A DNA stretch of 64,000 bases, taken from an uncultured Clostridia bacterium. GTDB taxonomy: Bacteria; Bacillota; Clostridia; Christensenellales; UBA1242. The stretch spans positions 361,397 through 425,396 of the forward strand of contig CAKVLR010000002.1 of assembly GCA_934757855.1 (NCBI GenBank). Reading direction: 5' to 3'. Shown piece by piece: positions 6,542-64,000 of this stretch (position 1 is its first letter; every line of letters begins with the position of its first letter). The position numbers and the translations under genes are program-made. Below the pieces are notes generated by a model. That model made no database searches, was not told the origin of the DNA, and saw only the letters and a program-made list of their open reading frames with translations.

Positions 6542-9500
6542 ATGAACAAAAGTTTACAAATGGTAAGTTGGTTTACTGGGGTGATTTTGGGAATAGTTGT
6601 TTTGCTTTTTGGCGGATTAAATCTCACACAAAATCGCAAGGCAGTGCTAGGCTATCCGCAGTACACGACTTTTTGGCTCGATAGCGCGGTAAAATATATC
6701 GAGTCGGAGCAATCTGCTGGCACTAAACAATATCCATATTTAATCAACACACCTGAGCAGTTGGCGTACATTGCAAAGGCTGTGAACGGCGGTACGGTTG
6801 ATAATGATGGAAATGTGCAGTATCTTGATTTTAGCGGGGTATTTTTCCAACTCAACGCCGATATTGATTTGAGCGGGAGTAACTGGGTGCCTATTGGAAA
6901 CGAGGCGCACCCATTTAAAGGTGTATTTTATGGCAATGGTAAAAAAATCTCAAATATGGTGATTGACTCAACTATGATGAACGCGACCGCTGGCGGAGTT
7001 GTTGTGAATGATTTTAGACAAAGCCTAGGATTGTTTGGTTATGTTGGGTACAACGGGAGTGCTGGAGAAACTGCTTCCACAATCAATCAGTTGGTTATTG
7101 AAAATGCATACATAAACGCTTGCGAATACGCGCAATATGCGGGTACAGTTGCGGGGGTATTTGAGGGCGCAAGTTTAAATAATATCACTATCATTAGCCC
7201 TACGAGTGAAACTTCAAACGACACGACTAGCGCGGGCGCCGTGATTTATCACAATTTGACCGACGCAAGTGTAATGAGTGCGGACTTTATCGCGGGCGGT
7301 GTGGTAGGAAAGTTGGGTAACTCGACTAGCACAACCGTTGCAAACCTTAGCAATGCGAACCACGATAACGAAATTTTGACTTCTATAAAATCAACTATTT
7401 ACGACAACAACGGCTATTCAGTCGTTTTGGGTGGTTTAGTCGGTGAAAATAATGGTACTCTCAAAGAAAGTCGCCGTACTGGTGGCGAGATAAACGCGTT
7501 TATCGGTACAATCGGTGGTTTGGTCGGTGTAAATAGTGCTAGCGGGAAAATGCTAGACTGCTACAACTACGGAAACATTTTGATTGACCCACTTTTGCCA
7601 AACGGTGTGAGCGTAGATAGTGGCTTAAACAAGGCAGAAGAAACGGTCATCGGTGGTATGGCTGGTAAAAACTTTGGTAGCATTTCTATCGAGAATTTTA
7701 GTGCAATTTACGGTACTGTCGAAGGGCAAAATGTTGCGCAAGTATTCCAAACTTGCCGAGGACTAATCGGTGGTATCGCGGGAACAAGTAAAGGAACGAT
7801 TGAAAATATCACAAATTTTGCATTTGTAAAATGTACGGGCGACCAAGTGCAATATATGGGTGGTATTACCGCAATTAATGCGGGTACAATTCGTAAATGT
7901 GTAAATAAAGGCATCGTTGGTGCGGACGGAAATACTGAATTTTCAGCAAAGGCAGTCGGCGGTATCACTGGGCTAAATGATAGTGCATCAATAGGTGATG
8001 GCGCAGAGCAGTTGGGCGATGGTAAGATTTATGGTGTAGAAAACAAGGCTGACACTGGTATCAATATTAATGCGGAAAATGCGGGCGGTATCGCGGGTAT
8101 CAATGCAAGTACTGGAAATATTACCTCTTATGAGGCTGGCGTGGTGGCTGGTGTAGTGCGAAATTTAGGAAATGTGCAAGGCACATCTGCCGTTGGTGGT
8201 ATCGTTGGTAAAAATTACGGTACAGTGGAATATGTTTACAATACAACAAATATTAGTTGCGCAAGCAATGCGGACTCGGCTAGCGTGGGGGGCGTAGTTG
8301 GAATTATGAGCAAAGGCGCAATCAAAAATAGTTTCAATGTAGGACAAGTGCTTGATGGATATAATGTTGGTGGTTTTGTAGGCACAATGGAAAATAGAAC
8401 GGCAAGAATCGAAAATTGTATCAATTACGGAAGCGTAACAGGTAGCAGAGGATATGTTGGCGGTTTTGCTGGATATATCGAAGCGGGCGCGCTTAGCAAG
8501 GTAATCGCTATTTGTGATGTGACTGAAAACGGTGACTCGCCTTTGGGTATCGGTGGTGTAATCGGTGCGGTAAAATTAAGCAATGGTGCGCCTGATACAG
8601 GAGTTACGCTAGAAAACTATTTCTATTCGGAAAGCATTGCAAACTACGAAGAAGATGAATTTGGCGTAACTGATAACGGAATGATAGCAATCGGTAATAC
8701 TGACATCAACAAATGGGCAAAAATGGACAGTTACAAGATGACTTTGCCATATGTAGAAAGCAAAATGACTGGTAGTGACAGATACCGTAGCGGTTTGTAT
8801 AAGGCTGGTTCTACGGGTGCTGAAATTGAAAACACTGACTGGTACTTTAACACAGCAAATGAAACGGCAAATACATATTATTATCCTATTTTGCGTGCGT
8901 TTAGGGCTGGGGAAACAAATTCACTCAATGTCTATGGCGCAACGGCAGATGCGGTGAAACCTGAAAACGGACTCGAATACCCAAGCGAAACGATTTTTAG
9001 AGTAGAATTTAGAAACAATTATCCATACTGGAATGTAAACGCCAAAGATTACGAAGAACGCGTAATTTGTGAAGATAGATATGTAGTAAACGGACATTAT
9101 ACGGCTGAGCCAAACTCAGACCTTTACGATAAGCCAGCAGGCTTTTATATGCAATGGAAACAGACCGATATTGATATGACTACTGCTCCACAAAATTGGA
9201 GTTTTACAAATAAAGTTACTAGAAATATGCGCATATACATTGATTGGACCGAAAAAACTTATACAATTAAATATTACTTGCAACTAAATGGTGTAGGTGA
9301 ATTTGTAGAGATGACCGCGGAAGAAAGAGAGCAATTTGGACTGAGCGATTCTTCAACATATAGCCTTGACCCTAACGCAAAATCAAGTCTAAATGCGATT
9401 AATATACCTGAGCCAAAATTGTTTGGTTATTCTTTTGATGGCTGGTGGATAAGCAAGACCGCAAGCGGAATAGGTGCTACTCTTGATGAGACGGACAAAG

Positions 9501-50584: not shown

Positions 50585-50667
50585 GCGATTGTGGCGGAAT
50601 TGGCAGACGCGCTAGGTTCAGGTCTTAGTGGGAAACCGTGAAGGTTCAAATCCTTTCAATCGCACCA
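50585..50667 (+). tRNA. tRNA-Leu (anticodon CAG)
   Basis: Acceptor GCGATTG/CAATCGC, anticodon loop UUCAGGU, long variable arm, encoded CCA. Confidence 0.9.
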
Positions 50668-50690
50668 AAAGACCCCTTGCGGGTCTTTTT
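50668..50690 (+). terminator. rho-independent terminator
   Basis: GACCC-CTTGC-GGGTC followed by TTTTT. Confidence 0.8.
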
Positions 50691-50778
50691 GATTGAAAGG
50701 ATTTGAGAGAGCGTGCGCTCTCGCACTGCTCTAAAAGCAGTGAACCTTCACTTTCGTGAACGGACGCTCGCTGTTCTT
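50691..50778. other. tRNA-Leu-associated structured element, copy E2
   Basis: 16/16 nt (50691-50706) and 9/9 nt (50743-50751) are the reverse complement of the adjacent tRNA T-arm and 3' acceptor region. A 36-nt two-hairpin insert splits them. Homologous to 20353-20443. Confidence 0.7.
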
Positions 50779-50784
50779 AAAAAA

Positions 50785-50970
50785 CGATATTGACCTAGCG
50801 GTCAATGATATTACTCACTATCGTTCGTAGTGATATTATTTACTAGCGTAAATAATGATATGATATTTGCCTTCACTGCAAACAAAGTTTGCAATATCAC
50901 TCGCTAAGCGAATATCATTGCGGAGCAATATCACTCACGCAGTGAATATCACTGAGCCGTAGGCTCAATT
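50785..50970. repeat. array of eight different short hairpins separated by GATAT (x5), then ATATC (x4), linker words
   Basis: GATAT at 50786, 50807, 50832, 50857 and 50862. ATATC at 50894, 50912, 50928 and 50946. Hairpins at 50791-50804, 50815-50833, 50838-50853, 50877-50893, 50901-50911, 50917-50929, 50931-50945 and 50953-50967. Confidence 0.8.
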
Positions 50971-50974
50971 TCAT

Positions 50975-51019
50975 TGTAAACAAAAGGAAAAGCCTCATAG
51001 GCTTTCCTTTTTTGTTTAC
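50975..51019. terminator. long hairpin with flanking A/T tracts (bidirectional terminator type)
   Basis: GTAAACAAAAGGAAAAGCC-TCAT-AGGCTTTCCTTTTTTGTTTAC. Confidence 0.7.
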
Positions 51020-51090
51020 TGAGGGACTCACGCCGTTACGCTAACCAGCCTGTTATTCTATTAGCATCGTACGGACAGCGCTTCACTATC

Positions 51091-51160
51091 GTGCCGAGGT
51101 GCTAAAAACTTGCCACTGGCAATTTTTTCAAACGCACCTGTTCGAGTCCGACGACTATCG
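51091..51160 (+). other. inverted tRNA-Leu(CAA)-derived fragment (tRNA-like, not a functional tRNA)
   Basis: GTGCCGAG (the tRNA 5' end) and TGTTCGAGTCCG (a T-arm-like sequence) flank an unrelated hairpin AGGTGC..TTGCCAGTGGCAA..GCACCT. There is no matching acceptor 3' strand. Confidence 0.35.
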
Positions 51161-51161
51161 T

Positions 51162-51196
51162 AAAACAAAAACAAGACCGTTCTATTAGTCTTGTTT
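51162..51196 (-). terminator. terminator of tRNA-Leu(CAA)
   Basis: On the minus strand: ACAAGAC-loop-GTCTTGT followed by TTTTGTTTT. Confidence 0.7.
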
Positions 51197-51201
51197 AGTA
51201 C

Positions 51202-51288
51202 TGGTGCCGAGAGAGGGACTCGAACCCTCATGGGATTGCTCCCGGCAGATTTTGAGTCTACTGCGTCTGCCAATTTCGCCATCTCGGC
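51202..51288 (-). tRNA. tRNA-Leu (anticodon CAA)
   Basis: Acceptor GCCGAGA/TCTCGGC, anticodon loop CUCAAAA, long variable arm, T-arm GAGGGTTCGAGTCCCTC, encoded CCA. Confidence 0.9.
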
Positions 51289-52475: not shown

Positions 52476-55400
52476 ATGTTTAAAATTGTTTCAAAATTGA
52501 GTAAGGTTGTTGCAGTGATTGGTGCTGTTTTTCTTACTCTTTTATTTTTAAATTTTACTTTAAATTTCCATACAAAAAGTTTTGCGAGTAGTGAATTCGA
52601 AATTAACACTGCACAAGATTTGTATGATTTGGCAAATTCTGTAAACAACGGCAACAATTTTTACTTAACGGAAGTAAATTTAATGCAAGATATAGACCTA
52701 AATTTTGCGGAATGGCAGGCAATCGGTATTACAAAAGCAAAATGTTTTGCGGGTTCGTTTAATGGTAACGGGCATAAAATTTCAGGGTTATTGATTAATA
52801 ACAGTGGAAATGCAGGTTTGTTCGGAGCGCTGTGTGGAAAAGTGGAAAACTTAGTACTCGAAACAAAAATTGTATTGCGTGATTTTGGCGAAACTGCTAA
52901 AATCGGTGGTATTGCGGGGAATTTGATAAGCAAACTTATAAATGGCACAAATATCTATGGCAGTATTGTAAATTGTGCTGTATATTCAGAGGTTGCGGTT
53001 GAAGCAAAAAATTCTAAAACCACACAAGTTGGTGGGTTGGTTGGCACATATTCGAGCAACACTCGTCTAGCAGATTGCGCGGTTTATGTGCAAAATGAGT
53101 ACGATTTTATGCAAAGCAGTATGAGTTTTGGCTTACTGGCTGGAAAAAGTGGAATTTCTGCTACCGATTGCGTGTCGTACGGAAATGAAAATTTTATCAC
53201 CATTGAAAATGAAAATATAAATTCCAGCAAACTGGATTTTAATGAAAATTGGGCATTTTGCGAGAGTTGCGAGCAAATGTATCTAAAAATTGATACCTTG
53301 CACTTGCATCAAAACGATACAAAAATTATTACCCCAGAGTTGTCAAAAACTACTTACGAATATACTCAAAAGCCTTTGGAATTATCGCTAAAGCCTATCA
53401 CAAAACTCAACGAAAATGATGATATTTCGTACAAAATTGAGATAATTTCACAAAATTTAGGCGAAAATATAGCAAAAATTAGTCTTTTGGGTGCTGACAA
53501 AGATAAATACATACTATCTACCGACACAGTTAAATTTACTGTGATTGCCAAAAAAGTATATATAGTTATAAAAGCAAATTCCAGTGTGTACGGCGAACCG
53601 CTAAACGATATTGAATACACGCAAAGCGTTGATGAAAATTTGCAAATTGAATTTGGTTTGTTTCAACAAAATGAGCAAGTTGATGCATTTGATGCGGGCG
53701 AATATGATATAAAAGTTACCACTTATGATGAAAATTATAAACTCGTAATTACTGGGGCAAAATACACAATTTTACCGCGTGAAATTGCGCCCAAAACAAG
53801 TGATTTTACTTGCAATTACTCTCAACCATTTGATTTTGCTAGTATAGAACTAGAAAGTGTGCTAAATTGTGATAAAAGTGCAGTATATTGCATAAATAAT
53901 GGCACTATACCGCAAAATAAAGGCACATACCCGCTAAAAATTGCAATTAGTGGAGATAGAAGTAATAACTATTTATTGATAAACAACGAGATAAATTTAA
54001 CGATTTTACCTAAAAATATTGAGGTAATCTGGCAAGAAAGTACTTTTACCTTTAACAATGAATTTCAATACCCGTTGGCGAAAATAAACGAAAACGAAAT
54101 AACGGAAAATATAGAGTTTACCTACTCGCAATATGGCAAATTTGCTGGTGAAAATAGAGTGGTTGCAAAGAGCGAAAATGAAAATTACAATATCACAAAT
54201 TACGAAAAAACCTACACCATTTTGCCTTTACCTGTCGAGGTAATTTGGGTAAATAACACTCATATTTTTGATAATCAGCCGTTTTATCCACAATTTGAAA
54301 TAAAATTAGATTTTAAATATCAAATCAATATTATTACAAGTTCAAGCCAAAGTGAGGTGGGTGAATATACGGCGACACTCAATGTGCTGGACGCAAATAT
54401 TTTGTTAAATAATAATACTACTCAATTTACAATCACGCCATATGCGATTAATATAGTTTGGACAAAAACCGAATTTACTTTTGACAATTTACCGCACGCG
54501 CCAGAGTTTATTTTAGAACCTTTGCCTTTTGAATATGACTTAAAATTAACCAACTCCTCACCGCAAATTGATGCGGGCGAACATACTGGCATAGTTGTCT
54601 TAAATGACAAAAATTTCACAATTTTTAATGCAAAAACGCAATTTTTTATCAAAAAATACGATTTTTCGTTGATTTGGAGCGAAAATTTATTCATTTTTGA
54701 TAGTACTATGCAATGTCCAACCGTGCAAAATGATTTGCCATTTGAGTATAATTTATCTATTAATTACACACCCGCGCAAAGTGAAGTAGGTAAGCACGCG
54801 ATAGAGGCTAGCACCAAAGATACTAACATTAATTTACTAAATAAAATAGCCGAATACGAAATTTTACCATATGTTTGCGAGTTGTGTTGGAGTGATACTA
54901 CCAGCACATTCAATAACACTTGTTTCAATCCAACTTGCAGTTTTGAGTTGCCATTTGTATATGATTTAAAGATAAACTTATCCGCACCTCAAACCAACGC
55001 AGGGCAATACACTTGCACCGCAAACACAATGGACAAAAATATCAAACTCGCAAACGCCAGCACTTTGTTTACTATTAAACCCAAAACTGTTAGGCTTGCG
55101 TGGACAAATACTTATGTTTGTTATACGGGGTATGTTCAAACCCCGACTTGCGCCTACGATATTTTAGATTATGATTTTCCTATTGAGATTACGGGCGCGC
55201 AAGAAAATGTCGGCGTATATACGGTGACCGCTACCACTACCGACACAAATATAAAAATTGATAATTGTATGACTAAATTTGAAATATACAATCTAGTTTG
55301 CGAGGTGCTTTGGAGCGAAAAAGAGTTTGTTTATAATGGCAGTAAATTTTGTCCAACGCCAACTCTAAATTTGGCTGACAATATAAATAAAGCAAAAATT

Positions 55401-56135
55401 GCGCTCAAAACAAGAGGGGCATCTAGCAGTATAGGTAGCCACACGGCGGTAGCATATACGGACAATAAAAATGTCAAATTATACAACATTGCGTGCAGTT
55501 ATAAAATACTAGAAAATTCTGCTTATTTTGTTTCGCAAGAAGATGAATTAAATGTGCGTGTTAGTGGCGAATTTGTGGGCGATGTAAATATTGATTTAAC
55601 TACGATTGATGAGAAAAATATTGTACCGCGCAACTGGGAAATTTTGTGCGCAATAAAACTTGAAAATCGTTTAGAAAACAGCGAAAATTTGCAAAAATTA
55701 CTAAAAAATACACAAAAAACACTCATTTTTGATGATTTTTCAGCAAATTTGGAAGATTTGAGTGAGGAAAACGAAAATGAAACGGAATACAATTTCAACA
55801 TAAATTACTCCATAATTGTAGGTGTAAATAATCTAAAAGTGTACTTAATTACAGATAATGATTTCAACGAAATTGACTACAATATTAGCAACAAAAATTT
55901 ATCTTTTACCACAAACGATTTAGGAGTTATTTGCATAGTAAATGAAAAGCCTGATACATTTGTATCGGACTTGATTAGGTCCATTATGGGCGCTATTATT
56001 GTAGTGTGCGCGGGTACTTTTATCACAATCAAACACTTGCAAGAAAAACAACAAATTGTGTTTAAAAAAGTAGAACCGCAAACCGCCAAAAATGAAAACG
56101 AAAAAACCAAAGCCAAAAAGCAATCGAAAAAATAA
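52476..56135 (+). CDS. giant surface protein (1219 aa): signal anchor, GLUG-type region, ~10 tandem Ig-like (MBG-type) repeats, C-terminal TM plus basic tail
   Basis: N-terminal region GLFGAL..GGIAGN..GGLVG. Repeats of ~85-90 aa end in YTILP, FTITPY, FFIKKY, YEILPY and FTIKPK. C-terminus IMGAIIVVCAGTFITIKH followed by a K-rich tail. Confidence 0.8.
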   Translation: MFKIVSKLSKVVAVIGAVFLTLLFLNFTLNFHTKSFASSEFEINTAQDLYDLANSVNNGNNFYLTEVNLMQDIDLNFAEWQAIGITKAKCFAGSFNGNGHKISGLLINNSGNAGLFGALCGKVENLVLETKIVLRDFGETAKIGGIAGNLISKLINGTNIYGSIVNCAVYSEVAVEAKNSKTTQVGGLVGTYSSNTRLADCAVYVQNEYDFMQSSMSFGLLAGKSGISATDCVSYGNENFITIENENINSSKLDFNENWAFCESCEQMYLKIDTLHLHQNDTKIITPELSKTTYEYTQKPLELSLKPITKLNENDDISYKIEIISQNLGENIAKISLLGADKDKYILSTDTVKFTVIAKKVYIVIKANSSVYGEPLNDIEYTQSVDENLQIEFGLFQQNEQVDAFDAGEYDIKVTTYDENYKLVITGAKYTILPREIAPKTSDFTCNYSQPFDFASIELESVLNCDKSAVYCINNGTIPQNKGTYPLKIAISGDRSNNYLLINNEINLTILPKNIEVIWQESTFTFNNEFQYPLAKINENEITENIEFTYSQYGKFAGENRVVAKSENENYNITNYEKTYTILPLPVEVIWVNNTHIFDNQPFYPQFEIKLDFKYQINIITSSSQSEVGEYTATLNVLDANILLNNNTTQFTITPYAINIVWTKTEFTFDNLPHAPEFILEPLPFEYDLKLTNSSPQIDAGEHTGIVVLNDKNFTIFNAKTQFFIKKYDFSLIWSENLFIFDSTMQCPTVQNDLPFEYNLSINYTPAQSEVGKHAIEASTKDTNINLLNKIAEYEILPYVCELCWSDTTSTFNNTCFNPTCSFELPFVYDLKINLSAPQTNAGQYTCTANTMDKNIKLANASTLFTIKPKTVRLAWTNTYVCYTGYVQTPTCAYDILDYDFPIEITGAQENVGVYTVTATTTDTNIKIDNCMTKFEIYNLVCEVLWSEKEFVYNGSKFCPTPTLNLADNINKAKIALKTRGASSSIGSHTAVAYTDNKNVKLYNIACSYKILENSAYFVSQEDELNVRVSGEFVGDVNIDLTTIDEKNIVPRNWEILCAIKLENRLENSENLQKLLKNTQKTLIFDDFSANLEDLSEENENETEYNFNINYSIIVGVNNLKVYLITDNDFNEIDYNISNKNLSFTTNDLGVICIVNEKPDTFVSDLIRSIMGAIIVVCAGTFITIKHLQEKQQIVFKKVEPQTAKNENEKTKAKKQSKK

Positions 56136-56582
56136 AATAACAAAGAGGAGTGATACCTGTATCGTAAAATTTTTTATTAATTAATATTTTTTGGATTGCC
56201 ACGCTAACGCTCGCAATGACTTGGAGTGTGCAAGCATGCTTAAAGGGGCAATTTTTTCAATCTGCAACTTTTTGCAGAGGTGGAAGACATCAAAAAGATA
56301 AAAACGCTTCACCATAATGCAATCTTTTTTTGTTGCAATCACTTGCATATTTTTTTCATTCCAGAGATAGCAAGGTAAATATAGCCACTTCCATTGCATA
56401 GAATTATATTGTCGCCTTTTCTTAAATTTTTTTTGCTAAAATTTTACTAAAAATATTTTTAAAAATAATTTTAGTAAAATTGTATTGATTTTATATAAAA
56501 GTTATGATATATATTAAAAGTCAATTAAAATCTATGATTAATTGGCTCCCTTCCCCCAAAATAAATTTTTGGAGGTGTTAAC

Positions 56583-57233
56583 ATGTATGAATTTGTTAGC
56601 AAAAAAGAAGTGCAATCTGCAAGAAATGAAATTGAGGGTGTAATCCATAATGTGCAAGATTATTTGAGAAAAAATAATATTTTAACTTTTCAATATAATC
56701 TTGTTGGTAGTGCTAGTAAACATAGGCATCTTGTAACAAGAATTGTGGGAGGAAACCAAGGTTTTGATATGGATTATAATATTATTATTCAGTCAATCGA
56801 TGATAAATATAATAATCCTAAAAGAACTAAAATAATTCTTATGCAAACTTTTAATGAATTTCTGCCAAAAGATTTCAAGCCTTGTGAAGATTCTTCATCG
56901 GTGTTCACTATTAAAAAAGTGAATAAACAAAGCAAAAAAATTGTTTACAGTTTTGATTTTGCTATTGTCCATTATTACTATCCTGAGACAGAAGATGAGT
57001 ACTATCAAGTTGAAAGACAAGAATATATTTCTTTTAATAAAAAAGCAAATTCGTATTCTTGGGAATTAAGAAAAATTGCTTCTGACCATAGATATATGGA
57101 GCAATATATCAAACACAATAGTTTATGGAATAGATTAAGAGAAGATTATCTTAAACACAAAAATAGTGAGCCAACAAAGAAATCAAGAATAGTTTATTAT
57201 GAAACTCTCAAACGCATTTATAACAAATATTAA
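56583..57233 (+). CDS. Pol-beta-superfamily nucleotidyltransferase-like protein (216 aa)
   Basis: VGSASK...(18 aa)...FDMDYNI (GS...DxD) and a third acidic strand YSFDFAIV; GGAGG SD; AT-rich like the cas genes. Confidence 0.55.
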   Translation: MYEFVSKKEVQSARNEIEGVIHNVQDYLRKNNILTFQYNLVGSASKHRHLVTRIVGGNQGFDMDYNIIIQSIDDKYNNPKRTKIILMQTFNEFLPKDFKPCEDSSSVFTIKKVNKQSKKIVYSFDFAIVHYYYPETEDEYYQVERQEYISFNKKANSYSWELRKIASDHRYMEQYIKHNSLWNRLREDYLKHKNSEPTKKSRIVYYETLKRIYNKY

Positions 57234-57247
57234 AAAGCACTTCAAAG

Positions 57248-57278
57248 CAATAGGTTATTAACTTGCCTATTGTTTTTT
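57248..57278 (+). terminator. rho-independent terminator after the NTase gene
   Basis: CAATAGG-11 nt-CCTATTG followed by TTTTTT. Confidence 0.75.
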
Positions 57279-57333
57279 ATTTTCCCAGTTTTTTACTTTT
57301 TTGGTGATAATTGCGTACAAAATATTGAGTTTA

Positions 57334-57342
57334 TGTTATAAT
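57334..57342 (+). promoter_or_regulatory. extended -10 (TGtTATAAT), candidate cas operon promoter
   Basis: TATAAT at 57337-57342 with an upstream TG; no good -35 at 17 nt. Confidence 0.4.
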
Positions 57343-57356
57343 GCTGGTGGAGGAAA

Positions 57357-57452
57357 CAAAAAAGGTCCGCAATTAGCGCAGACCTAACATATTTCTATGT
57401 GATGAGTTTAAATTTATTTTAACTCTATCATGTAATTCAGGTGTTTCCACCT
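57357..57452 (-). ncRNA. tracrRNA: tracrRNA candidate (antisense to the cas9 5' leader)
   Basis: The minus strand reads GGUGGAAACACCUGAAUUACAUGAUAGAGUUAAAAUAAAUUUAAACUC...GGUCUGCGCUAAUUGCGGACCUUUUUU. It shares AGUUAAAAUAA with the S. pyogenes tracrRNA. It has its own promoter and an intrinsic terminator. Confidence 0.65.
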
Positions 57453-57458
57453 ATTTAA

Positions 57459-57487
57459 ATAATACATTATTTTAAAGGAGAAGTCAA
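57459..57487 (-). promoter_or_regulatory. tracrRNA promoter TTGACT-17-TATTAT
   Basis: Minus strand: -35 at 57487-57482 and -10 at 57464-57459. The predicted TSS (~57452) is at the start of the anti-repeat. Confidence 0.6.
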
Positions 57488-57491
57488 GCGA

Positions 57492-60400
57492 ATGGCAAAA
57501 GAAAAAGAGAAATTAAAGCATACTAATTATAGCATTGGACTGGATATTGGTACAAATTCAGTTGGTTGGGCTGTTGTAGATGAAAATATGAATTTGGTTA
57601 AGCGTTGTAAAAAGCACTTATGGGGTAGTCGCTTGTTTGATGAGCGCGAAACAGCAAAAAATAGGCGTATATTTCGTACTACGCGCAGAAGGTTATTGCG
57701 TAGGCGTATTCGTATCGCAATACTAAATAAATTGCTACAAGATTTTGTTGGCGACCAAAACTTTTTTGTTAGAATGGAAGAAAGTTTTTTGCAGAAAAAC
57801 GACCGCACTTTGCAAAATAAATACACACTTTTTGATGAAGAAAGTTCTTGCGACATAAAATCAAGTGATGGCAAAATTTTATATACCATAACAAAAGATG
57901 ATGATTTTTATAAATTATTTCCTACAATTTATCACTTGCGCAAAAGCATTATTGAGCATCAAGATTGGATATTTGCTCCAAAACTGGTTTATTTAGCGAT
58001 TCACCATATCTTAAAGAGTCGTGGTAACTTTATCAATGAAAGTTTGGACTCAAAAAATAGCGATGATAAAAATACCGATGAGGACCAAGAACAAGAGATA
58101 GATATAAATAAATTATTTGTTAAAATTTTGCAAGATGCTTGTGATATATATGATGTGGAATTAGAAAATATTGATGAATTTAGCGAATATAAATGGATTA
58201 GAAATCTAAGTGCACAATCGCAGGTATTTTTTGAAGTTTTGCAAAATAATGATTTAAGCAAAGAAGCAAAAATTGCGCAAATAAAACAAAAATTTAATTG
58301 TGGAAAAGATGATACAGAAATTGAATCGCTCCTAAAATTGTTACTTGGCGATTTGGCGGATATCAACAAGATATTTAAGAGTGATACCAAAGAGAAATTT
58401 AAAGTGAAATTTTCAGAGGACAATATTGATGAAAAAATATTAGCAAGTGGTGAATATTCACAATTTTTAGAAAATGCTAAAAACTTGTATTCCTTGGTAG
58501 AGTATCAGCGAATTATGCAAGGCAAAAATTATCTTTCTGATGTAATGATAGAGCGATACAATCGTTACAAACAACAATTAAAAGACTTAAAAACTGTATT
58601 TTTAGCGATTTATCCAAAACAAAATGGCAAAATGCACCCAGAATATCGCAAGTTTTTCCGTGATTTAAAAACTGTTGATGGTTATGCTTGATATACATAT
58701 TCCGTTAATTCTTGTGATGAGAAAAAATTTAAAAGTACTATTATAGGGGCAATAAAAAATAATGAGCAAAAAATAATTAGTGCGGGCATTTGTGCGGAAG
58801 ACAACCAAAGTATTGCGGAAAAAGCGAAAAAAATCTTAATTTGTCTTGGAGAGTATTCGGCAAAAGATGGAAAAGAACAACTTTATGTTGGTATAGACTT
58901 TACAGACAAAGATTTTAGGACAGAGAGTGATAGGCAAAAGCAACAAGAGTTAGGCTTTTTACAGCGCCCTCGCGTGGCTGGTAATGGTATTTTCCCAAAA
59001 CAAGCACACCAAAAAGAATTAGATATAATTCTTAAAAATCAATCAGTATATTGGGGCAATTTTTTAAACAAAAAAACTGATTTCTCAAACAACACAATTC
59101 AAGAAGATATCAAAAAATTATTCAATTTTAAAATTGACTACTATGTTGGACCATTGGGTATCAGCAAAAATGGAACAAACAATTTTGGCTGGGTGGTACG
59201 CAAAGAAGGTTTTAGTGAAATAACTCCTTTTAATTATTACGATGCTGTTGATTTTGAGAAAACTCGTAAAAATTTTATTGAGAGAATGTCTGGCAACTGC
59301 TCATATATTTTGAATAAAAAAGCGTTACCTAAAAACTCAATGTATTACTGCTATTTTAATGTACTAAATGAATTATGCAATATTAGTATTTTGATAAAAG
59401 ACAAATTAATGAAATTGCACGAGATTTCACTAAATGGAAAAAATTGCTTTGATATTATTATTGATAAATTGCTCGAGAAAAATACCTTTAAACAAAAAGA
59501 TTTATTGCATATGCTGACAGAAGAATATGATGATGTGTCTATAAGAGGTTTTTCAAATGGCGAAAAGTTAAATTCTAATTTAAAATCAATTCGCGATATG
59601 GCTAGAATATTTGAGGATAGAAAATTAAATCATTGTGAAATTATGGAATTTCTAGGCAGTGAAAAAGCAAGTATGTATGAAGATGTAATTCGTGATGTTA
59701 CTATTTTCGGCGAAAGCAAAAAAGCACTAAAAGAATCTTTGAGTAAATATCATTTGAAGGAAGATGAAAAAGAGAGAGAGAAACAAATAAACGCCATTTG
59801 TGAGTTAAATTATTCTGGTTGGGGTAATTTGAGCAAAAAATTAATTTTTGGCATTGAATCTGAGAGTAGCGGGAACAAAATTCTAAAATTAATGGAAAGC
59901 GAACATAGAAACTTTATGTCTATTTATATGGACAAGCGATACGGCTTTGATGAGCAAGTAAAAAAACTAAACGAAGTAGATAAACCTAATGTCCTTGAGC
60001 AAATTAACTCGCTTGTTTGCTCTCCTAGCGTAAAAAGAGGGGTTAACCAAGCGTATAAAATTGTGGAGGAACTAGTACAAGTTATGGGACACGCTCCGCA
60101 AAATGTATTTTTAGAGTTCGCGCGTGGTGGAGATTCTAAGAAAAAAGGTAGTGTTATTCCAAACAGACAAAAACAAATTGACAAAAAATATAAAGATGCA
60201 AAAGCATTAAAAGATGGCTTATATGAAAAATATATAAATGCTGACGGTAAATTAAATGAAAATATAAGCCTTTTATCACAAAACGATAAAGAAAATGATA
60301 AATTAAAGAATAAATTTGATAATGAAAAAGTAGTACTATATTTCTTGCAAATGGGTAGATGTATGTACAGTAATGAGATATTAGACTTAAATCATATTAG

Positions 60401-62255
60401 CGAATATGAAGTGGACCACATCGTGCCTCAGTCGATTATAGATGATAATAGTTTTGATAATAAAGTTTTGGTTAAGGTGAAAAGAAATCAACAAAAATCC
60501 AATGGAATTTTAGAGATAAAAGACTCAGAAGTAACGAAATTATGGAAAGAGTTGCGTAAAATGGGGTTGTTGACAGTTGAAAAATATGATAGATTGCTCA
60601 AATTGCAGAATGGCACTCTGCTTGATAATACTGCTGGTTTTGTTGCTAGACAATTAGTGGAAACTAGGCAAATTATAAAAAATACCGCAGAAATTTTAAA
60701 AGACTACTTCAAAGAATATAATGCTAAATCTGCTCAAATTAATGCAGAAAATCAAGCATTTGAAACTTCGGTTTATCCTGTAAAGGCTGAGATGAATAGT
60801 ATTTTTAGACAAAAATTTGGTTATCCAAAGGGCGAAGGTGGCAGGGCTATCAATGACTTTCACCACGCAAAAGATGCCTATATCACAACGGTTATGGGGA
60901 CTTATATGCTAAATCATTGGCATTTAGATGACCCTAAAATGTGGTTTGTAGCAAGGAGTAAAAAGAATGAAGATGACCCTAAATTTGAATGTTCATTTTA
61001 TCAAAACTATATCGAAGATATAAAAGCGGAACAAGACACGCTAAACCCGCAAAATACAAATAAAAGCGGTGTGATTGTTGGTTCGATGAAGAAATATCAA
61101 GACAAAAATTGGTGTGGTAGCAAATGCGAAACTCATACAAACATTACTATTAAAGATGTGCTTAATAATTTTGACCGTAACTACTACTCCGCAGATTGTT
61201 ATTATTCAAGAAAAATTGATTCAAAACCAACAGGTGCTTTTTACGACCAAACCATTTACAAAAGCGACAAGAATAAAGAAAAGTTTGGGAAAACGCGCAA
61301 TCATGAGGGTATTGCGAGTATTTCTTTGGGAAAAATCAAAAAACCAATTATGCCATATGGTGAGAAGGTAGTGCAAAAAATCAATAGAATAGACTTAGAT
61401 GTGAGTAAATATGGTGGCTATTCTTCAACTAAATATGCATATTTTATGCTAATTGAGTACAAAGATGAAAAGGGTAAAGTAATTCAGGAAATAATTGGTT
61501 GTCCATACTACATATTAAAACAATCATCGAATGATATTGAATTAGTGAATAACATAAAAAATAATTTAATAATAAAAAACCAACAAGAATATACTAATTT
61601 TAAAATTTTAAATAAACGATTACCTAAAAAAAGTGTTTTGCAAACTAATTTGTATTCAAAAGTTTCGTTAGATCGGTCTGAACAATTCAAGATTATAAAT
61701 CGCTTCAGTATCCCACGAAATAATAAAGAATTATATCATTTTATTTATTTAATTTTTAAGTATACTAAGAGCAAAGATGAATATGAGGGTAATAGAAAGA
61801 TTACAATAAATTATATTGATTATAATGCATGGCTAAAAGAAAAACAGTATCCGTTAGGTGTGAATATAGATTTAGAGAATTATATAAATGAGAATTTTGC
61901 TAATTTTTATAAGATTTTTCTTGAATATGTTAAGTCAAAACATAGACATAAGACTTCTATAATTAATATTGAAAAAGCATATGCTAAGATTTGTAATGAA
62001 ACTGATTTAGATGCGATATATCACGATACCAATACAAAAACCATACTTGAAAAGAAATTATTATTTATTGTAGGGTTATTAAATATTTCAAAGGGAGAGG
62101 CAGATTTTACATTGTTTGATTTAGCAAAAAATTGTGGACTTATTAGGATTACACAGGAAGTGGACTGGTATAACACTTACATTATTCACAATTCCATAAC
62201 TGGTATTTATTGCACAAAAGAAAAAATAATAAAAAATACACAAGAAAATAGGTAA
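57492..62255 (+). CDS. cas9: Cas9 (type II-A), 1587-codon frame interrupted by one in-frame TGA at 58689-58691 (possible pseudogene or read-through)
   Basis: RuvC-I YSIGLDIGTNSVGWAVV; Arg-rich bridge helix RRIFRTTRRRLLRRRIRI; RuvC-II VFLEFARG; HNH YEVDHIVPQS..N; RuvC-III NDFHHAKDAY. ORF-track pieces 57492-58691 and 58974-62255 are in the same frame, and 58692-58973 is open. Confidence 0.93.
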
Positions 62256-62258
62256 AAT

Positions 62259-63131
62259 ATGAGTTTTAGGACTGTTTTAATTACTCAAAAATCAAAGTTA
62301 TCATACAAAGATAACTTTTTGGTTATTCAAGGTAAAACAACAAATATGGTGCATTTAAGCGAAATTCATACTATTATTGTTGAATCTACAATGGTGCAAA
62401 TATCGGCATATCTTTTAGCTCAATTATCTGCAAACAAAATCAAATTGATTGTTTGCGATGAACGCCACAACCCTACAGCAGAAATGGTACCATATTATGC
62501 AAATTACAATACATCAAAAAGATTTTTAAATCAGGTCAAATGGAATGAGGAAAGTAAAAAAGCCCTTTGGACAAAAATAGTATCAAATAAAATACTAAAT
62601 CAGGCAAGAATTTTAAAAAATTTTGGAATAGAAAGACACAAAATGTTGCTAGGATATTTGAGTGAGGTAGAATTAAACGATGAAACAAATAGAGAGGGAC
62701 ATTCTGCAAAAGTCTATTTTAATAGTTTGTTTGGTATGGATTTTTCGCGGGACAAGGTTTGTGATATAAATATGGCATTAGATTACGGATATACTATTAT
62801 TTTATCTGCGTTTAATCGTACTATATCTAGTTTGGGTTATGCAAACCAATTAGGAATTAAACATAAAAATGAGTACAATTTCTTTAACCTAGGTTGCGAC
62901 CTTATGGAGCCGTTTCGAGTGGTTATAGATGAATTTGTGTATGAAAATCGTGAGCGAATGTTTGATTCTTCATACAAACAAGATTTGGTGCAGTTGTTAA
63001 ATAAGAATATTAATTATTGTGGCAAAAATATGATTTTAACCAATGCAATAAATATATTTGTGCTAAACGCGTTGCGCGCAATTGATGAAAATAGAATAGC
63101 GGAGTATGAAGCATATGAGTACGGAGTATAG
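62259..63131 (+). CDS. cas1: Cas1 (type II)
   Basis: Strong similarity by eye to S. pyogenes Cas1: SKLSYK.N.L, NREGHSAKVYFNSLFG.DFSRD, LDYGYT, EPFR. Confidence 0.95.
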   Translation: MSFRTVLITQKSKLSYKDNFLVIQGKTTNMVHLSEIHTIIVESTMVQISAYLLAQLSANKIKLIVCDERHNPTAEMVPYYANYNTSKRFLNQVKWNEESKKALWTKIVSNKILNQARILKNFGIERHKMLLGYLSEVELNDETNREGHSAKVYFNSLFGMDFSRDKVCDINMALDYGYTIILSAFNRTISSLGYANQLGIKHKNEYNFFNLGCDLMEPFRVVIDEFVYENRERMFDSSYKQDLVQLLNKNINYCGKNMILTNAINIFVLNALRAIDENRIAEYEAYEYGV

Positions 63132-63441
63132 ATTTATGAGATTAATTGTATTTTTCGATTTGCCTACATTTACAAAAAAAGATTTGCAAAATTACAATCA
63201 ATTTAGAAGATTTTTAATAAAAGAAGGTTTTGCAATGATGCAAGAATCTGTTTATACAAAAATTTTGCTAAACGGAACTATGGCGGGGCTTTTAAAAGAG
63301 AGAATAAAAAAGAATTCCCCTCGAAATGGGCTTATTCAACTGCTTTTAGTTACCGAAAAGCAGTTTGCAAACATTGAATTTGTATCGGGAGAGTCTAAAA
63401 GTATAATAGAAGATTCAGACAAAAGGTTTGTGGTGTATTGA
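63115..63441 (+). CDS. cas2: Cas2 (type II)
   Basis: MSTEYRFMRLIVFFDLPT...EGFAMMQESVYTKILLN...VTEKQFANI parallels S. pyogenes Cas2. The start is ambiguous (63106, 63115 or 63136). The TGA stop overlaps the csn2 ATG. Confidence 0.92.
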   Translation: MSTEYRFMRLIVFFDLPTFTKKDLQNYNQFRRFLIKEGFAMMQESVYTKILLNGTMAGLLKERIKKNSPRNGLIQLLLVTEKQFANIEFVSGESKSIIEDSDKRFVVY

Positions 63442-64000
63442 TGAAACTTGGCTTTTTTGAAATAGAAAATCCTATTGAATTTAGACAAGGTTTTGTAAGT
63501 ATATTAGAAATAGGGAACAAAACACTGCTAAGAAATGTTGTATTTGGACTTTATAAATTGTATAATGGCTTGCAAGCGGATATGTCTATCGTGATAGAAC
63601 AAAATAATACGGTTGAAGCGTTGAGTAAATTTGAGTTGGTAACTGATATTATAAATTTAGATTTATCGACTTCGCAAACAAAACTGAATAAGTACCTTTT
63701 AAATGAATTGGAAAATAATCAAGAGGAGTTTAGAGCAGTTTTTGATGAATTATTTGCTATAAAATCTAAAATTTTCAACTTTTTAGATGACATTCCTTTC
63801 GATTTGTGTTATAATGAGCCAGAAGTGCTAGATTTGATAAAAGATTTCAATTTCAAACTAGACTGCAAAAGTGAAGAGGGGCTATTAAAAGGTGTGCTAA
63901 ACTATATCAAAGCAGTAAAGTTATTGAAATTGGCGGAAATTATCATATTTGTGGACCTAAAAAAATATTTTACAGAGGCGGAATTAAAGCAAATTTATGA
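63441..64000 (+). CDS. csn2: Csn2 (type II-A marker), 3'-truncated by the window end
   Basis: Open frame from ATG 63441 to the window end (missing from the ORF track). Position after cas2 and the VTDIINLDLSTSQTKL.. segment resemble S. pyogenes Csn2. Confidence 0.75.
   Translation, partial: MKLGFFEIENPIEFRQGFVSILEIGNKTLLRNVVFGLYKLYNGLQADMSIVIEQNNTVEALSKFELVTDIINLDLSTSQTKLNKYLLNELENNQEEFRAVFDELFAIKSKIFNFLDDIPFDLCYNEPEVLDLIKDFNFKLDCKSEEGLLKGVLNYIKAVKLLKLAEIIIFVDLKKYFTEAELKQIY

Follow-up and report, generated by a model that had tools for sequence, protein, structure and literature searches.

In a type II-A CRISPR-Cas locus (cas9-cas1-cas2-csn2-array) of an uncultured gut Firmicute we identified what is very probably its tracrRNA gene, beside the start of cas9 and on the opposite strand. 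This tracrRNA is ordinary in its class and in its position, the strand opposite to cas9, upstream of the gene, being the usual place for type II-A tracrRNAs (Chylinski 2013, PMC3737331). Its atypical points are a short anti-repeat, a 5′ hairpin that caps it and an antisense location within the probable leader of cas9.

The type II-A locus and its array

The window, by which we mean the whole stretch of DNA that was analysed (64 kb), carries the following cas genes:

57492–62255, plus strand: cas9, 1587 codons with a premature TGA; Pfam Cas9_REC, HNH_4, Cas9_RuvC and Cas9_PI
62259–63131, plus strand: cas1, PF01867
63106–63441, plus strand: cas2, PF09827, terminating in TGA
63441–64000, plus strand: csn2, PF09711, running off the window

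The cas9 ATG lies at 57492–57494, and the solved structures nearest to the encoded protein are SpCas9-like (E about 1e-113). In an exact-sequence look-up Cas1 was matched; the Cas2 product gave no match, probably reflecting a different start-codon call. A search of the 64-kb window for a CRISPR array found none. The same contig in the public assembly (L001) is identical to the window in gene content and extends beyond csn2, and there an array begins about 167 nt past the window end. It consists of 9 repeats GTTTTAGTATCATGTAATTCTAATAGGAACAATAAC, 36 nt each, with spacers of 30 nt (L001 11909–12473), so that cas9, cas1, cas2 and csn2 are followed by an array of 36-nt repeats, as expected for type II-A.

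The motif ATGAATTTGAG adjoins the first repeat at the leader end and degenerate repeats are found at the opposite end of the array, which together assign the crRNA to the plus strand and the RNA that pairs with it to the minus strand. In some relatives, inspection by eye revealed -10-like hexamers (TAATAT) at the 3′ ends of the repeats, as in the promoters-in-repeats of Neisseria; these hexamers are not conserved.

A minus-strand transcription unit upstream of cas9

The region between the start of cas9 and position 57357 contains the elements of a complete minus-strand transcription unit:

57482–57487, minus strand: tracrRNA promoter -35 element TTGACT, between the cas9 Shine-Dalgarno core and the ATG
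57477–57481, plus strand: cas9 Shine-Dalgarno core GGAGA, read from the sequence
57459–57464, minus strand: tracrRNA promoter -10 element TATTAT, with a 17-nt spacer to the -35
57357–57452, minus strand: predicted tracrRNA of about 96 nt, its start placed 7 nt past the -10 and its 3′ end within the U-tract
57357–57385, minus strand: intrinsic terminator from the terminator scan, a 9-bp stem-loop AGGTCTGCGCTAATTGCGGACCT (57385–57363) followed by TTTTTT (57362–57357)

The promoter TTGACT-17-TATTAT (57487–57459) scores 10/12 and is the joint best promoter-like site in the 2-kb region 56500–58500. The predicted start, on the minus strand, lies 40 nt upstream of the cas9 ATG. In the same region the terminator is the single terminator-like site, with a mean of 0.6 in shuffled sequence. 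The 96-nt RNA, which contains GAUAGAGUUAAAAUAAAUUUAAACUC, folds at −27.3 kcal/mol (z = −5.1), a value equalled by none of 200 shuffles. It ends, as tracrRNAs do, in 3′ hairpins of which the last is the intrinsic terminator, an arrangement kept with different sequences in the relatives described below. The start site, the RNA ends and any processing are predictions from these signals.

An earlier sequence-only reading of the window had proposed a minus-strand tracrRNA with its own promoter and terminator. The scans, the fold and the pairing with the repeat bear this out, and each sequence feature listed in that reading was found at the position given there or 1–2 nt from it. One detail needs correction: the -35 had been described as overlapping both the Shine-Dalgarno sequence and the ATG of cas9, and at 57482–57487 it actually abuts the Shine-Dalgarno core with no overlap of the ATG.

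The same reading recognized in AGUUAAAAUAA a motif common to the S. pyogenes tracrRNA, and this core is indeed in register with the consensus of the Rfam tracrRNA model, in which the lower-stem sequence UUAAAAU is also present. In the covariance-model check that it had suggested, the Rfam model RF02348 aligned full-length to exactly 57357–57452, but its score of 14.5 bits (E = 3–10) did not reach the gathering score of 70, and several unrelated Rfam families score similarly on this AT-rich stretch. RF02348 appears to be narrow, its 5′ half consisting of an S. pyogenes-type repeat-loop-anti-repeat hairpin.

Structure of the RNA and pairing with the repeat

From its 5′ end, the predicted RNA is organized as follows, upstream of the terminator:

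57439–57452, minus strand: 5′-terminal hairpin AGGUG-GAAA-CACCU, 5 bp with a GNRA tetraloop, abutting the anti-repeat (fold and relatives)
57426–57438, minus strand: anti-repeat upper stem GAAUUACAUGAUA, pairing over 13 bp with repeat nt 8–20 UAUCAUGUAAUUC (repeat pairing)
57423–57425, minus strand: bulge GAG on the tracrRNA side, without a repeat partner (duplex fold)
57416–57422, minus strand: anti-repeat lower stem UUAAAAU, pairing with repeat nt 1–7 GUUUUAG over 7 bp, two of them G-U pairs (duplex fold)
57401–57415, minus strand: linker or nexus-equivalent AAAUUUAAACUCAUC, with no clear G-C nexus hairpin
57387–57400, minus strand: hairpin 2, ACAUA-GAAA-UAUGU (fold)

The anti-repeat (57438–57416, 23 nt) is complementary to nt 1–20 of the repeat of its own locus, and repeat nt 21–36 are unpaired with the tracrRNA. 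It lies next to cas9, in the orientation needed for antiparallel pairing with the array transcript, and is the sole copy in the locus outside the array; in the 64-kb window, the pattern GAATTACATGATA-N(0-5)-YTAAAAY occurs once versus 0.00 expected.

Comparison with the real repeat had been named beforehand as the test on which the idea of a tracrRNA could fail. The array repeat proved complementary to the anti-repeat and the idea survived it, albeit with changes in extent. The 3′ boundary of the anti-repeat had been put at 57416, which is exactly right, but a length of 36 nt (57451–57416) had been assigned to it, and 57452–57439 is instead the conserved 5′ hairpin. Likewise, the repeat that had been predicted agrees with nt 1–20 of the real one (GTTTTA...TATCATGTAATTC) apart from an indel of 3 nt, which is the bulge, whereas the 16 nt at its 3′ end (AGGTGTTTCCACC...) are unrelated to the real TAATAGGAACAATAAC.

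There is no stable hairpin within AAAUUUAAACUCAUC, and the first hairpin begins 16 nt past the lower stem. In the free RNA the linker folds back onto the bulge and the lower stem (GAGUU/AACUC), forming a competing hairpin. Its sequence varies among relatives without clear covariation, and a clear nexus, AAGGUUUUAACCUU, is found in the distant relative L016.

We propose that the near-consensus sigma-70-type promoter would drive a minus-strand RNA of about 96 nt, from 57452 to the terminator at 57385–57357, whose anti-repeat would pair with the first 20 nt of each repeat through a 7-bp lower stem, the GAG bulge and a 13-bp upper stem. By analogy with known systems, Cas9 would bind this duplex, a host nuclease (RNase III in characterised type II-A systems) would process it and the complex would cleave DNA. 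Because the upper stem does not reach the length known from characterised systems, processing by RNase III is not assured. The 5′ hairpin may stand in for the distal half of the repeat:anti-repeat helix, which would leave repeat nt 21–36 unpaired and free to vary, and it might also stack on the duplex and protect the 5′ end of the RNA.

Conservation among related loci

We compared 11 distinct loci (10 besides this one), with Cas9 identity down to 33–38% over the compared region; these loci are phylogenetically related, so that counts across them overstate their independence. Eight loci make up a closer set, and L014, L015 and L016 are more distant.

All 11 loci have the -35 core TTGAC in an equivalent position next to the start codon of cas9. 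Seven of the eight close loci also have a -10 that passes the scan threshold, with its end at an identical offset, 17 nt past the -35; in the eighth, L004, the hexamer at this position is TAATCT, which falls short of that threshold. The G+C-rich terminator hairpin is a different one in every relative, but in each a T-run comes after it, exclusively on the minus strand, and unrelated hairpins occupy the position of hairpin 2 (e.g. CCGCA-UUUG-UGCGG in L004).

The core of the anti-repeat is nearly invariant in the eight closer loci, L008 being without its first G. Repeat nt 1–20 are invariant in those closer loci that retain an array, and the 13–16 nt at the 3′ end of the repeat are variable. Repeat and anti-repeat vary too little among these eight for covariation to be assessed, and the more distant L014 and L015 were needed for this. 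Both carry compensatory changes (in L014, repeat C20U with G to A in the tracrRNA), which indicates ongoing selection for pairing with the repeat. In most loci the bulge reads GAG, with GCG in L014.

The 5′ hairpin is conserved as a structure: across the eight loci 100% of the cells are paired, against 9–55% in slid controls, and two of its five pairs show two-sided changes. A different hairpin is found at this position in L014 (7 bp, ACUA loop) and in L015 (5 bp, GCAA loop), and L016 has a 23-bp upper stem in its place, a hint that the hairpin may accompany short anti-repeats. A metagenome scan with a 25-nt core of the tracrRNA recovered one locus only, identical to L002.

The predicted cas9 leader and its probable promoter

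Three plus-strand elements bear on the transcription of cas9:

57248–57283, plus strand: terminator-like hairpin CAATAGG-(11 nt)-CCTATTG with a T-run, after an upstream 216-aa ORF (sequence reading)
57334–57342, plus strand: probable cas9 promoter, an extended -10 TGTTATAAT with a weak -35 CGTACA at a 17-nt spacer (conservation)
57349–57491, plus strand: predicted cas9 5′ leader (about 143 nt), complementary without a mismatch to the full tracrRNA (from the position of the promoter)

The first of these implies a need for a separate cas9 promoter; with a loop longer than 8 nt, it was not reported by the terminator scan. A distal candidate is conserved: seven of the eight close loci have TGNTANNNT upstream of the tracrRNA terminator at a distance of 25 nt or less, for a background of 0.0023 per nt, and it would start cas9 at about 57349. 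Given that the tracrRNA -35 is conserved beside the cas9 start and that most loci have a plus-strand -10-like element on the far side of the terminator, the leader of cas9 probably runs antisense to the full length of the tracrRNA. The sequence-only reading had likewise drawn the leader from the extended -10 at 57334–57342, and the conservation of this element, together with the lack of conservation of a proximal alternative, favours its view.

That alternative, in which the tracrRNA is genuine but cas9 starts at a proximal, back-to-back promoter (-10 at about 57458–57463), divergent as in S. pyogenes, is unlikely but deserves serious consideration. If it were true, there would be no antisense leader and any coupling would be limited to competition between promoters. 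The window does contain a weak plus-strand candidate (TTCAGG-16-AATAAT, 8/12) that ends 29 nt before the ATG, similar ones occur in L009 (TTCAGA-16-TAAAAT, 9/12) and L012 (8/12), and AT-rich -10 boxes look alike on either strand. However, such a candidate scores in only three of the eight loci, none being found at a relaxed threshold in L004, L002, L005, L006 and L008, and its -35 falls inside the invariant anti-repeat and hairpin, so that this element is not judgeable alone. The distal extended -10, on the other hand, keeps a fixed position within otherwise unalignable sequence in the seven loci that carry it and has no other gene to serve.

A much less probable reading, to which we give very little credence, dispenses with a functional minus-strand RNA altogether: the feature would be either an unexpressed relic, namely a degenerate orphan repeat upstream of cas9, or a plus-strand cis-regulatory leader of that gene. 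Read on the plus strand, 57416–57438 resembles the repeat with a 3-nt insertion; tracrRNA anti-repeats are indeed thought to be derived from repeats (Chylinski 2013, PMC3737331), and the predicted plus-strand leader folds better than shuffles (z = −2.7). The fold of the minus strand is nevertheless far more significant (z = −5.1), and it is on this strand only that a hairpin followed by a T-run is found in every locus and on this strand that the near-consensus promoter holds its conserved position. Moreover, the downstream hairpins covary as minus-strand terminators, and the compensatory changes in L014 and L015 link the anti-repeat to the array repeat.

A long-range pairing within the leader, between GGTGGAGGAAACA (57346–57358) and TGTTTCCACC (57442–57451), had also been put forward in the sequence-only reading. 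Both segments are present and a 7-bp core of the pairing appears in the minimum-free-energy fold, but it is not conserved: four loci (L005, L006, L009 and L012) have no 5′ partner, and elsewhere 5–7 bp form without compensatory change, so we rejected it. The sequence GGAAACA can also be explained simply as complementary to UGUUUCC, the U-rich tail behind the terminator.

If cas9 is transcribed from the distal promoter, as we favour, the cas9 and tracrRNA promoters would be convergent, with about 100 bp between them, and the leader of cas9 an exact antisense of the tracrRNA. The expression of cas9 should then respond to the activity of the tracrRNA promoter, through collision of polymerases and cleavage of the leader:tracrRNA duplex. 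The geometry of a convergent pair agrees with the sequences and the conservation of these predicted promoters, and any regulatory coupling of tracrRNA and cas9 is inferred from this geometry. We suggest tentatively, as a possibility that is less likely than not, that the nested promoters constitute a conserved autoregulatory module in the gut Firmicute type II-A systems of this clade, with the GNRA hairpin as a built-in cap. Were this so, convergent transcription and cleavage of the leader:tracrRNA duplex would set the ratio of Cas9 to tracrRNA without the natural single-guide mechanism of S. pyogenes, and the hairpin cap could alter how, or whether, RNase III matures crRNAs.

Comparison with known systems

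The S. pyogenes tracrRNA spans, in its anti-repeat, nearly the whole repeat. The tracrRNA described here resembles the short form of that RNA in being encoded upstream of cas9 on the opposite strand, in its duplex, where 3 nt that bulge from the tracrRNA separate a lower stem GUUUUAG:UUAAAAU from the upper stem, in the AGUUAAAAUAA motif and in 3′ hairpins that lead to an intrinsic terminator. The loci also share an SpCas9-like Cas9, Csn2 and the leader-end motif ATTTGAG. In contrast to S. pyogenes, the anti-repeat is here limited to repeat nt 1–20, a conserved 5′ hairpin caps the upper stem, no G-C nexus hairpin comes straight after the lower stem, and the Rfam tracrRNA model scores below threshold. 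In addition, the intergenic space of S. pyogenes holds the cas9 promoter, whereas a tracrRNA start 40 nt from the ATG leaves no room for one to fit between.

Autorepression of cas9 by a tracrRNA is common in type II-A ‘branch 1’ loci (34/80; Workman et al., bioRxiv 10.1101/2020.05.21.102756), and the present gene, adjoining the cas9 promoter region, shares with the long-form natural single guide of that study an interlocking with this region and thus a possible route to cas control. Nonetheless, we rejected the idea that it is itself such a long-form autorepressor as extremely improbable: of the three published hallmarks (a guide match, a repeat mimic and a PAM beside the target) the first two are absent. 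In the 350 nt preceding the tracrRNA start (57453–57800) the minus strand has no GTTTTA or GTCTTA mimic, and the best match of this stretch to the cas9 promoter region, the low-complexity AACAAAAAAG, is 10 nt long, short of the 11 nt required. In addition, an anti-repeat rather than a repeat mimic comes after the 5′ hairpin, and with a start 40 nt from the ATG a long form would begin inside the cas9 coding sequence. Any coupling at our locus would therefore differ from that of the natural single guide in operating via convergent transcription and sense/antisense pairing, not via binding of Cas9 to DNA.

Convergent, overlapping promoter pairs with cis-antisense RNAs are known from prgQ/prgX of the Enterococcus plasmid pCF10 and from pR/pL of phage 186, and for this facing-promoter arrangement both transcriptional interference and antisense RNA effects are established. 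Our locus is similar in its predicted facing promoters, about 100 bp apart, and a predicted complete overlap of the transcripts. It differs in that one partner is a functional guide-RNA cofactor instead of a dedicated regulator. [quoted passage not shown] Our literature searches for the repeat and anti-repeat sequences returned no match, and those for a tracrRNA with convergent or antisense regulation of cas9 returned nothing relevant.

A premature stop codon in cas9

The cas9 gene of this genome contains an in-frame TGA at 58689–58691, which corresponds to codon 400. The same codon specifies Arg (CGC, CGT or AGA) in seven of seven relatives, and a truncated Cas9 product is present on three contigs. 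Recoding of TGA, either by a Mollicute-type code or as Gly, was considered and rejected, since cas2 ends in TGA, which indicates that this codon is a stop in the genome, and the relatives have Arg. The TGA at codon 400 is a nonsense mutation, and interference is therefore probably disabled in this genome. The tracrRNA may be a still-intact part of an inactivated system.

Significance

If the convergent arrangement is regulatory, it would represent a second and mechanistically different way in which a tracrRNA controls the expression of cas9. Otherwise, the tracrRNA gene is an ordinary part of an ordinary CRISPR locus, whose nuclease gene has probably been knocked out in this genome. Our analysis provides a validated tracrRNA and repeat for an uncharacterised clade of unusually large (about 1430–1590 aa) SpCas9-like proteins from uncultured gut bacteria, and such a pair is what the design of single-guide RNAs for this clade needs. 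The natural 5′ hairpin shows, in this respect, that the upper stem can stop after 13 bp.

A tracrRNA gene inside the probable cas9 leader

We read both strands of 57230-57500 for sequence elements, and the features of this region and its surroundings are as follows.

Sequence features (window coordinates)
52476-56135: ORF of 1219 aa just upstream of the CRISPR locus, no Pfam or PADLOC match
56583-57233: ORF of 216 aa just upstream of the CRISPR locus, no Pfam or PADLOC match
57334-57342, plus strand: TGTTATAAT, read from the sequence
57487-57459, minus strand: predicted tracrRNA promoter TTGACT-17-TATTAT, from a consensus scan (10/12 matches)
57385-57363, minus strand: 9-bp stem-loop followed by TTTTTT, the only terminator-like site in the 2 kb examined
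57477-57494, plus strand: cas9 Shine-Dalgarno sequence and ATG, read from the sequence
57492-62255, plus strand: cas9, from Pfam

The predicted ends of the minus-strand RNA delimit a tracrRNA of 96 nt, from a start at 57452, about 7 nt past the -10, to the U-tract at 57357. It folds into three hairpins at -27.3 kcal/mol (z-score -5.1), and none of 200 shuffled sequences folded equally well. The sequence read, the consensus scan and the fold all bear out the promoter, terminator and RNA proposed by the sequence-only reading. Only its placement of the -35 over the cas9 ATG was mistaken, as the hexamer (57482-57487) sits between the Shine-Dalgarno core and the ATG. In the covariance-model search that it had recommended, the Rfam tracrRNA model aligns over its full length to exactly 57357-57452, placing AGUUAAAAUAA and the two 3' hairpins in register, but it reaches only 14.5 bits, where the gathering score is 70, and does not outscore several unrelated families. 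A search with the public model alone would thus have missed this tracrRNA.

The array repeat and a short anti-repeat

No CRISPR array lies within the 64-kb window. An exact look-up of the Cas1 product retrieved the same contig from a public assembly (L001; window coordinate = L001 + 52258) with 2.9 kb of further sequence. There, csn2 is directly followed by the motif ATGAATTTGAG and by an array of nine identical 36-nt repeats, GTTTTAGTATCATGTAATTCTAATAGGAACAATAAC, separated by 30-nt spacers. Comparison of this repeat with the anti-repeat, the check proposed beforehand, revealed complementarity over repeat nt 1-20. Repeat nt 1-7 (GUUUUAG) pair with UUAAAAU of the tracrRNA (57422-57416) in a lower stem and nt 8-20 (UAUCAUGUAAUUC) with GAAUUACAUGAUA (57438-57426) in an upper stem, leaving GAG (57425-57423) as an unpaired bulge on the tracrRNA side. 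This gapped pattern occurs once in the 64-kb window, with 0.00 occurrences expected, and the 13-nt upper-stem sequence is found in L001 only at the tracrRNA site and in the nine repeats. The repeat had been predicted correctly over its first 20 nt, with the bulge as a 3-nt insertion; the remaining 16 nt were wrong, and the tracrRNA holds no complement to repeat nt 21-36.

A genome-collection scan with Cas1, a Cas9 homology search and look-ups of selected matches yielded eleven distinct loci including the window, with Cas9 identity down to 33-38% over the region compared. The relatives are from metagenome-assembled genomes of the gut that bear the label Christensenella or Clostridia. Among the eight closer loci, the anti-repeat core hardly varies, apart from a missing first G in L008. 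Where an array is retained, repeat nt 1-20 show no variation, while the 3' 13-16 nt vary freely, the pattern expected if pairing is limited to nt 1-20. Two of the more distant loci, L014 and L015, carry compensatory changes in repeat and anti-repeat, such as repeat C20U with G to A in the tracrRNA. Each locus carries a G+C-rich hairpin of its own, and only on the minus strand does a T-run come after it.

A hairpin caps the anti-repeat

A 36-nt anti-repeat starting at 57451 had been proposed. Instead, the first 14 nt of the RNA (57452-57439) fold as AGGUG-GAAA-CACCU, a GNRA-tetraloop hairpin of 5 bp directly abutting the upper stem. All cells of this hairpin (100%) are paired in the eight closer loci, compared with 9-55% for slid controls, and two of its five pairs show two-sided changes (G-C to A-U; A-U to G-C or G-U). 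At the same position, the hairpin of L014 is a different one (7 bp, ACUA loop) and that of L015 has 5 bp and a GCAA loop; L016, another distant locus, lacks an abutting hairpin and instead has an upper stem of 23 bp together with a clear nexus hairpin. This comparison suggests that the 5' hairpin stands in for the distal portion of the repeat:anti-repeat duplex.

Probable facing promoters

In all eleven loci the minus strand carries TTGAC no more than about 10 nt upstream of the cas9 start codon. Among the eight closer ones, a scoring -10 follows at 17-nt spacing in seven, and the hairpin starts 6-7 nt past the -10 position in all eight. The tracrRNA promoter thus takes up the whole 40-nt gap from the tracrRNA start to the cas9 ATG. 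On the plus strand, TGNTANNNT (background 0.0023 per nt window-wide) is found no more than 25 nt upstream of the tracrRNA terminator in seven of these eight loci, in otherwise unalignable sequence; in the eighth, L012, that spot holds TAAAAT, and TGCTATAAT occurs about 55 nt further upstream. Only three of the eight have a proximal plus-strand promoter that reaches a relaxed threshold. The upstream gene is followed by a terminator-like hairpin and T-run (57248-57283). The best reading of these elements is that cas9 transcription would start at about 57349, giving a leader of about 143 nt exactly antisense to the tracrRNA; the two promoters would face each other at a distance of about 100 bp.

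The long-range leader pairing GGAAACA/UGUUUCC, also proposed from the sequence, is present in the minimum-free-energy fold of this leader, yet it is not conserved. L005, L006, L009 and L012 lack its 5' partner; elsewhere the pairing spans 5 to 7 bp without compensation, and GGAAACA is also the complement of the U-rich tail after the tracrRNA terminator.

Decay of cas9 and related loci

Downstream of cas9, whose product has SpCas9-like proteins as its nearest solved structures, lie cas1, cas2 and the start of csn2, all with Pfam support. cas9 contains one in-frame TGA (58689-58691, codon 400), a position at which seven of seven relatives have an Arg codon (CGC, CGT or AGA) within the motif NYARYT. 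A variant genetic code is ruled out, as cas2 ends in TGA and all seven relatives have Arg. A one-off assembly error is unlikely since a 1093-aa C-terminal Cas9 fragment is on record from three contigs. By these comparisons, the TGA is a nonsense mutation. Array and tracrRNA are intact despite it; interference is probably non-functional in this genome because cas9 is truncated at codon 400. In a second, independent instance within the clade, cas9 of the related locus L008 (5371-9987 and 11880-12500) has also decayed: it has an in-frame TAG at codon 188, and no array follows csn2, but L008 retains both promoters and the tracrRNA, with a slightly shortened anti-repeat.

Cas1 of L002, a closer relative, is 89% identical to that of the window, and the tracrRNA core is unchanged. 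The Cas9 product P0003 (L011), which lies upstream of a leader region identical to that of L002, is only about 47% identical over the C-terminal 1187 residues. Compared with the adaptation genes and the guide RNA scaffold, Cas9 appears to diverge, or to be exchanged, much faster. In L005, arrays of a different 33-nt repeat, TCTCACCCCCACGCGGGGTGAGTGAATTGAAAC, flank the whole type II-A module (the tracrRNA up to and including the module's own array) on both sides (1-769, 8264-8564); it looks as if the module had been inserted into arrays of another CRISPR type or lay between them. L014 (1999-8686) comprises cas9, tracrRNA and a short array whose repeats are slightly degenerate, has no cas1, cas2 or csn2, and directly adjoins a phage-type integrase and several HTH genes; it is possibly located on a mobile element. 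Elsewhere in the window, a Gut-1 RNA (Rfam RF01706, 54.7 bits; 50907-50976, minus strand) lies between tRNA genes (region 50585-51288), and the second of the tandem 18-25-nt repeats at 50804-50953 overlaps it.

Proposed working and comparison with known systems

Beyond the sequence elements, their pairing potential and the evolutionary constraint on both, the later steps of the proposed mechanism are drawn from type II-A homology. The tracrRNA would pair with pre-crRNA repeat nt 1-20; by analogy, Cas9 would bind the bulged duplex, a host nuclease would cut the RNA, and the mature complex would cleave DNA next to a PAM. The 5' hairpin is probably stacked on the 13-bp upper stem as a continuous helix of about 18 bp. 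In Firmicutes, 5' stem-loops protect RNA 5' ends from 5'-exonuclease, and the hairpin may shield this end likewise. With facing promoters, cas9 transcription should respond to tracrRNA promoter activity, and the cas9 mRNA could pair with the tracrRNA over 96 nt, forming an RNase III substrate. That this coupling, through facing promoters and leader pairing, is a selected regulatory function seems to us a tentative and rather doubtful proposition.

A position upstream of cas9 is usual for type II-A tracrRNAs (Chylinski 2013, PMC3737331), and gut metatranscriptomes have shown tracrRNAs transcribed antisense to predicted cas9 mRNA (bioRxiv 10.1101/2020.03.31.018887). The locus lacks a long-form natural single guide of the S. 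pyogenes type (Workman et al., bioRxiv 10.1101/2020.05.21.102756): the search for it found neither a GTTTTA mimic nor a match of at least 11 nt to the cas9 promoter region. We found no papers with the repeat or anti-repeat sequence and none on convergent-promoter coupling of tracrRNA and cas9, which is weak evidence of absence given incomplete literature coverage. This tracrRNA is a known kind of RNA that varies in two respects: its anti-repeat is short and capped, and it is predicted to nest inside the cas9 leader.
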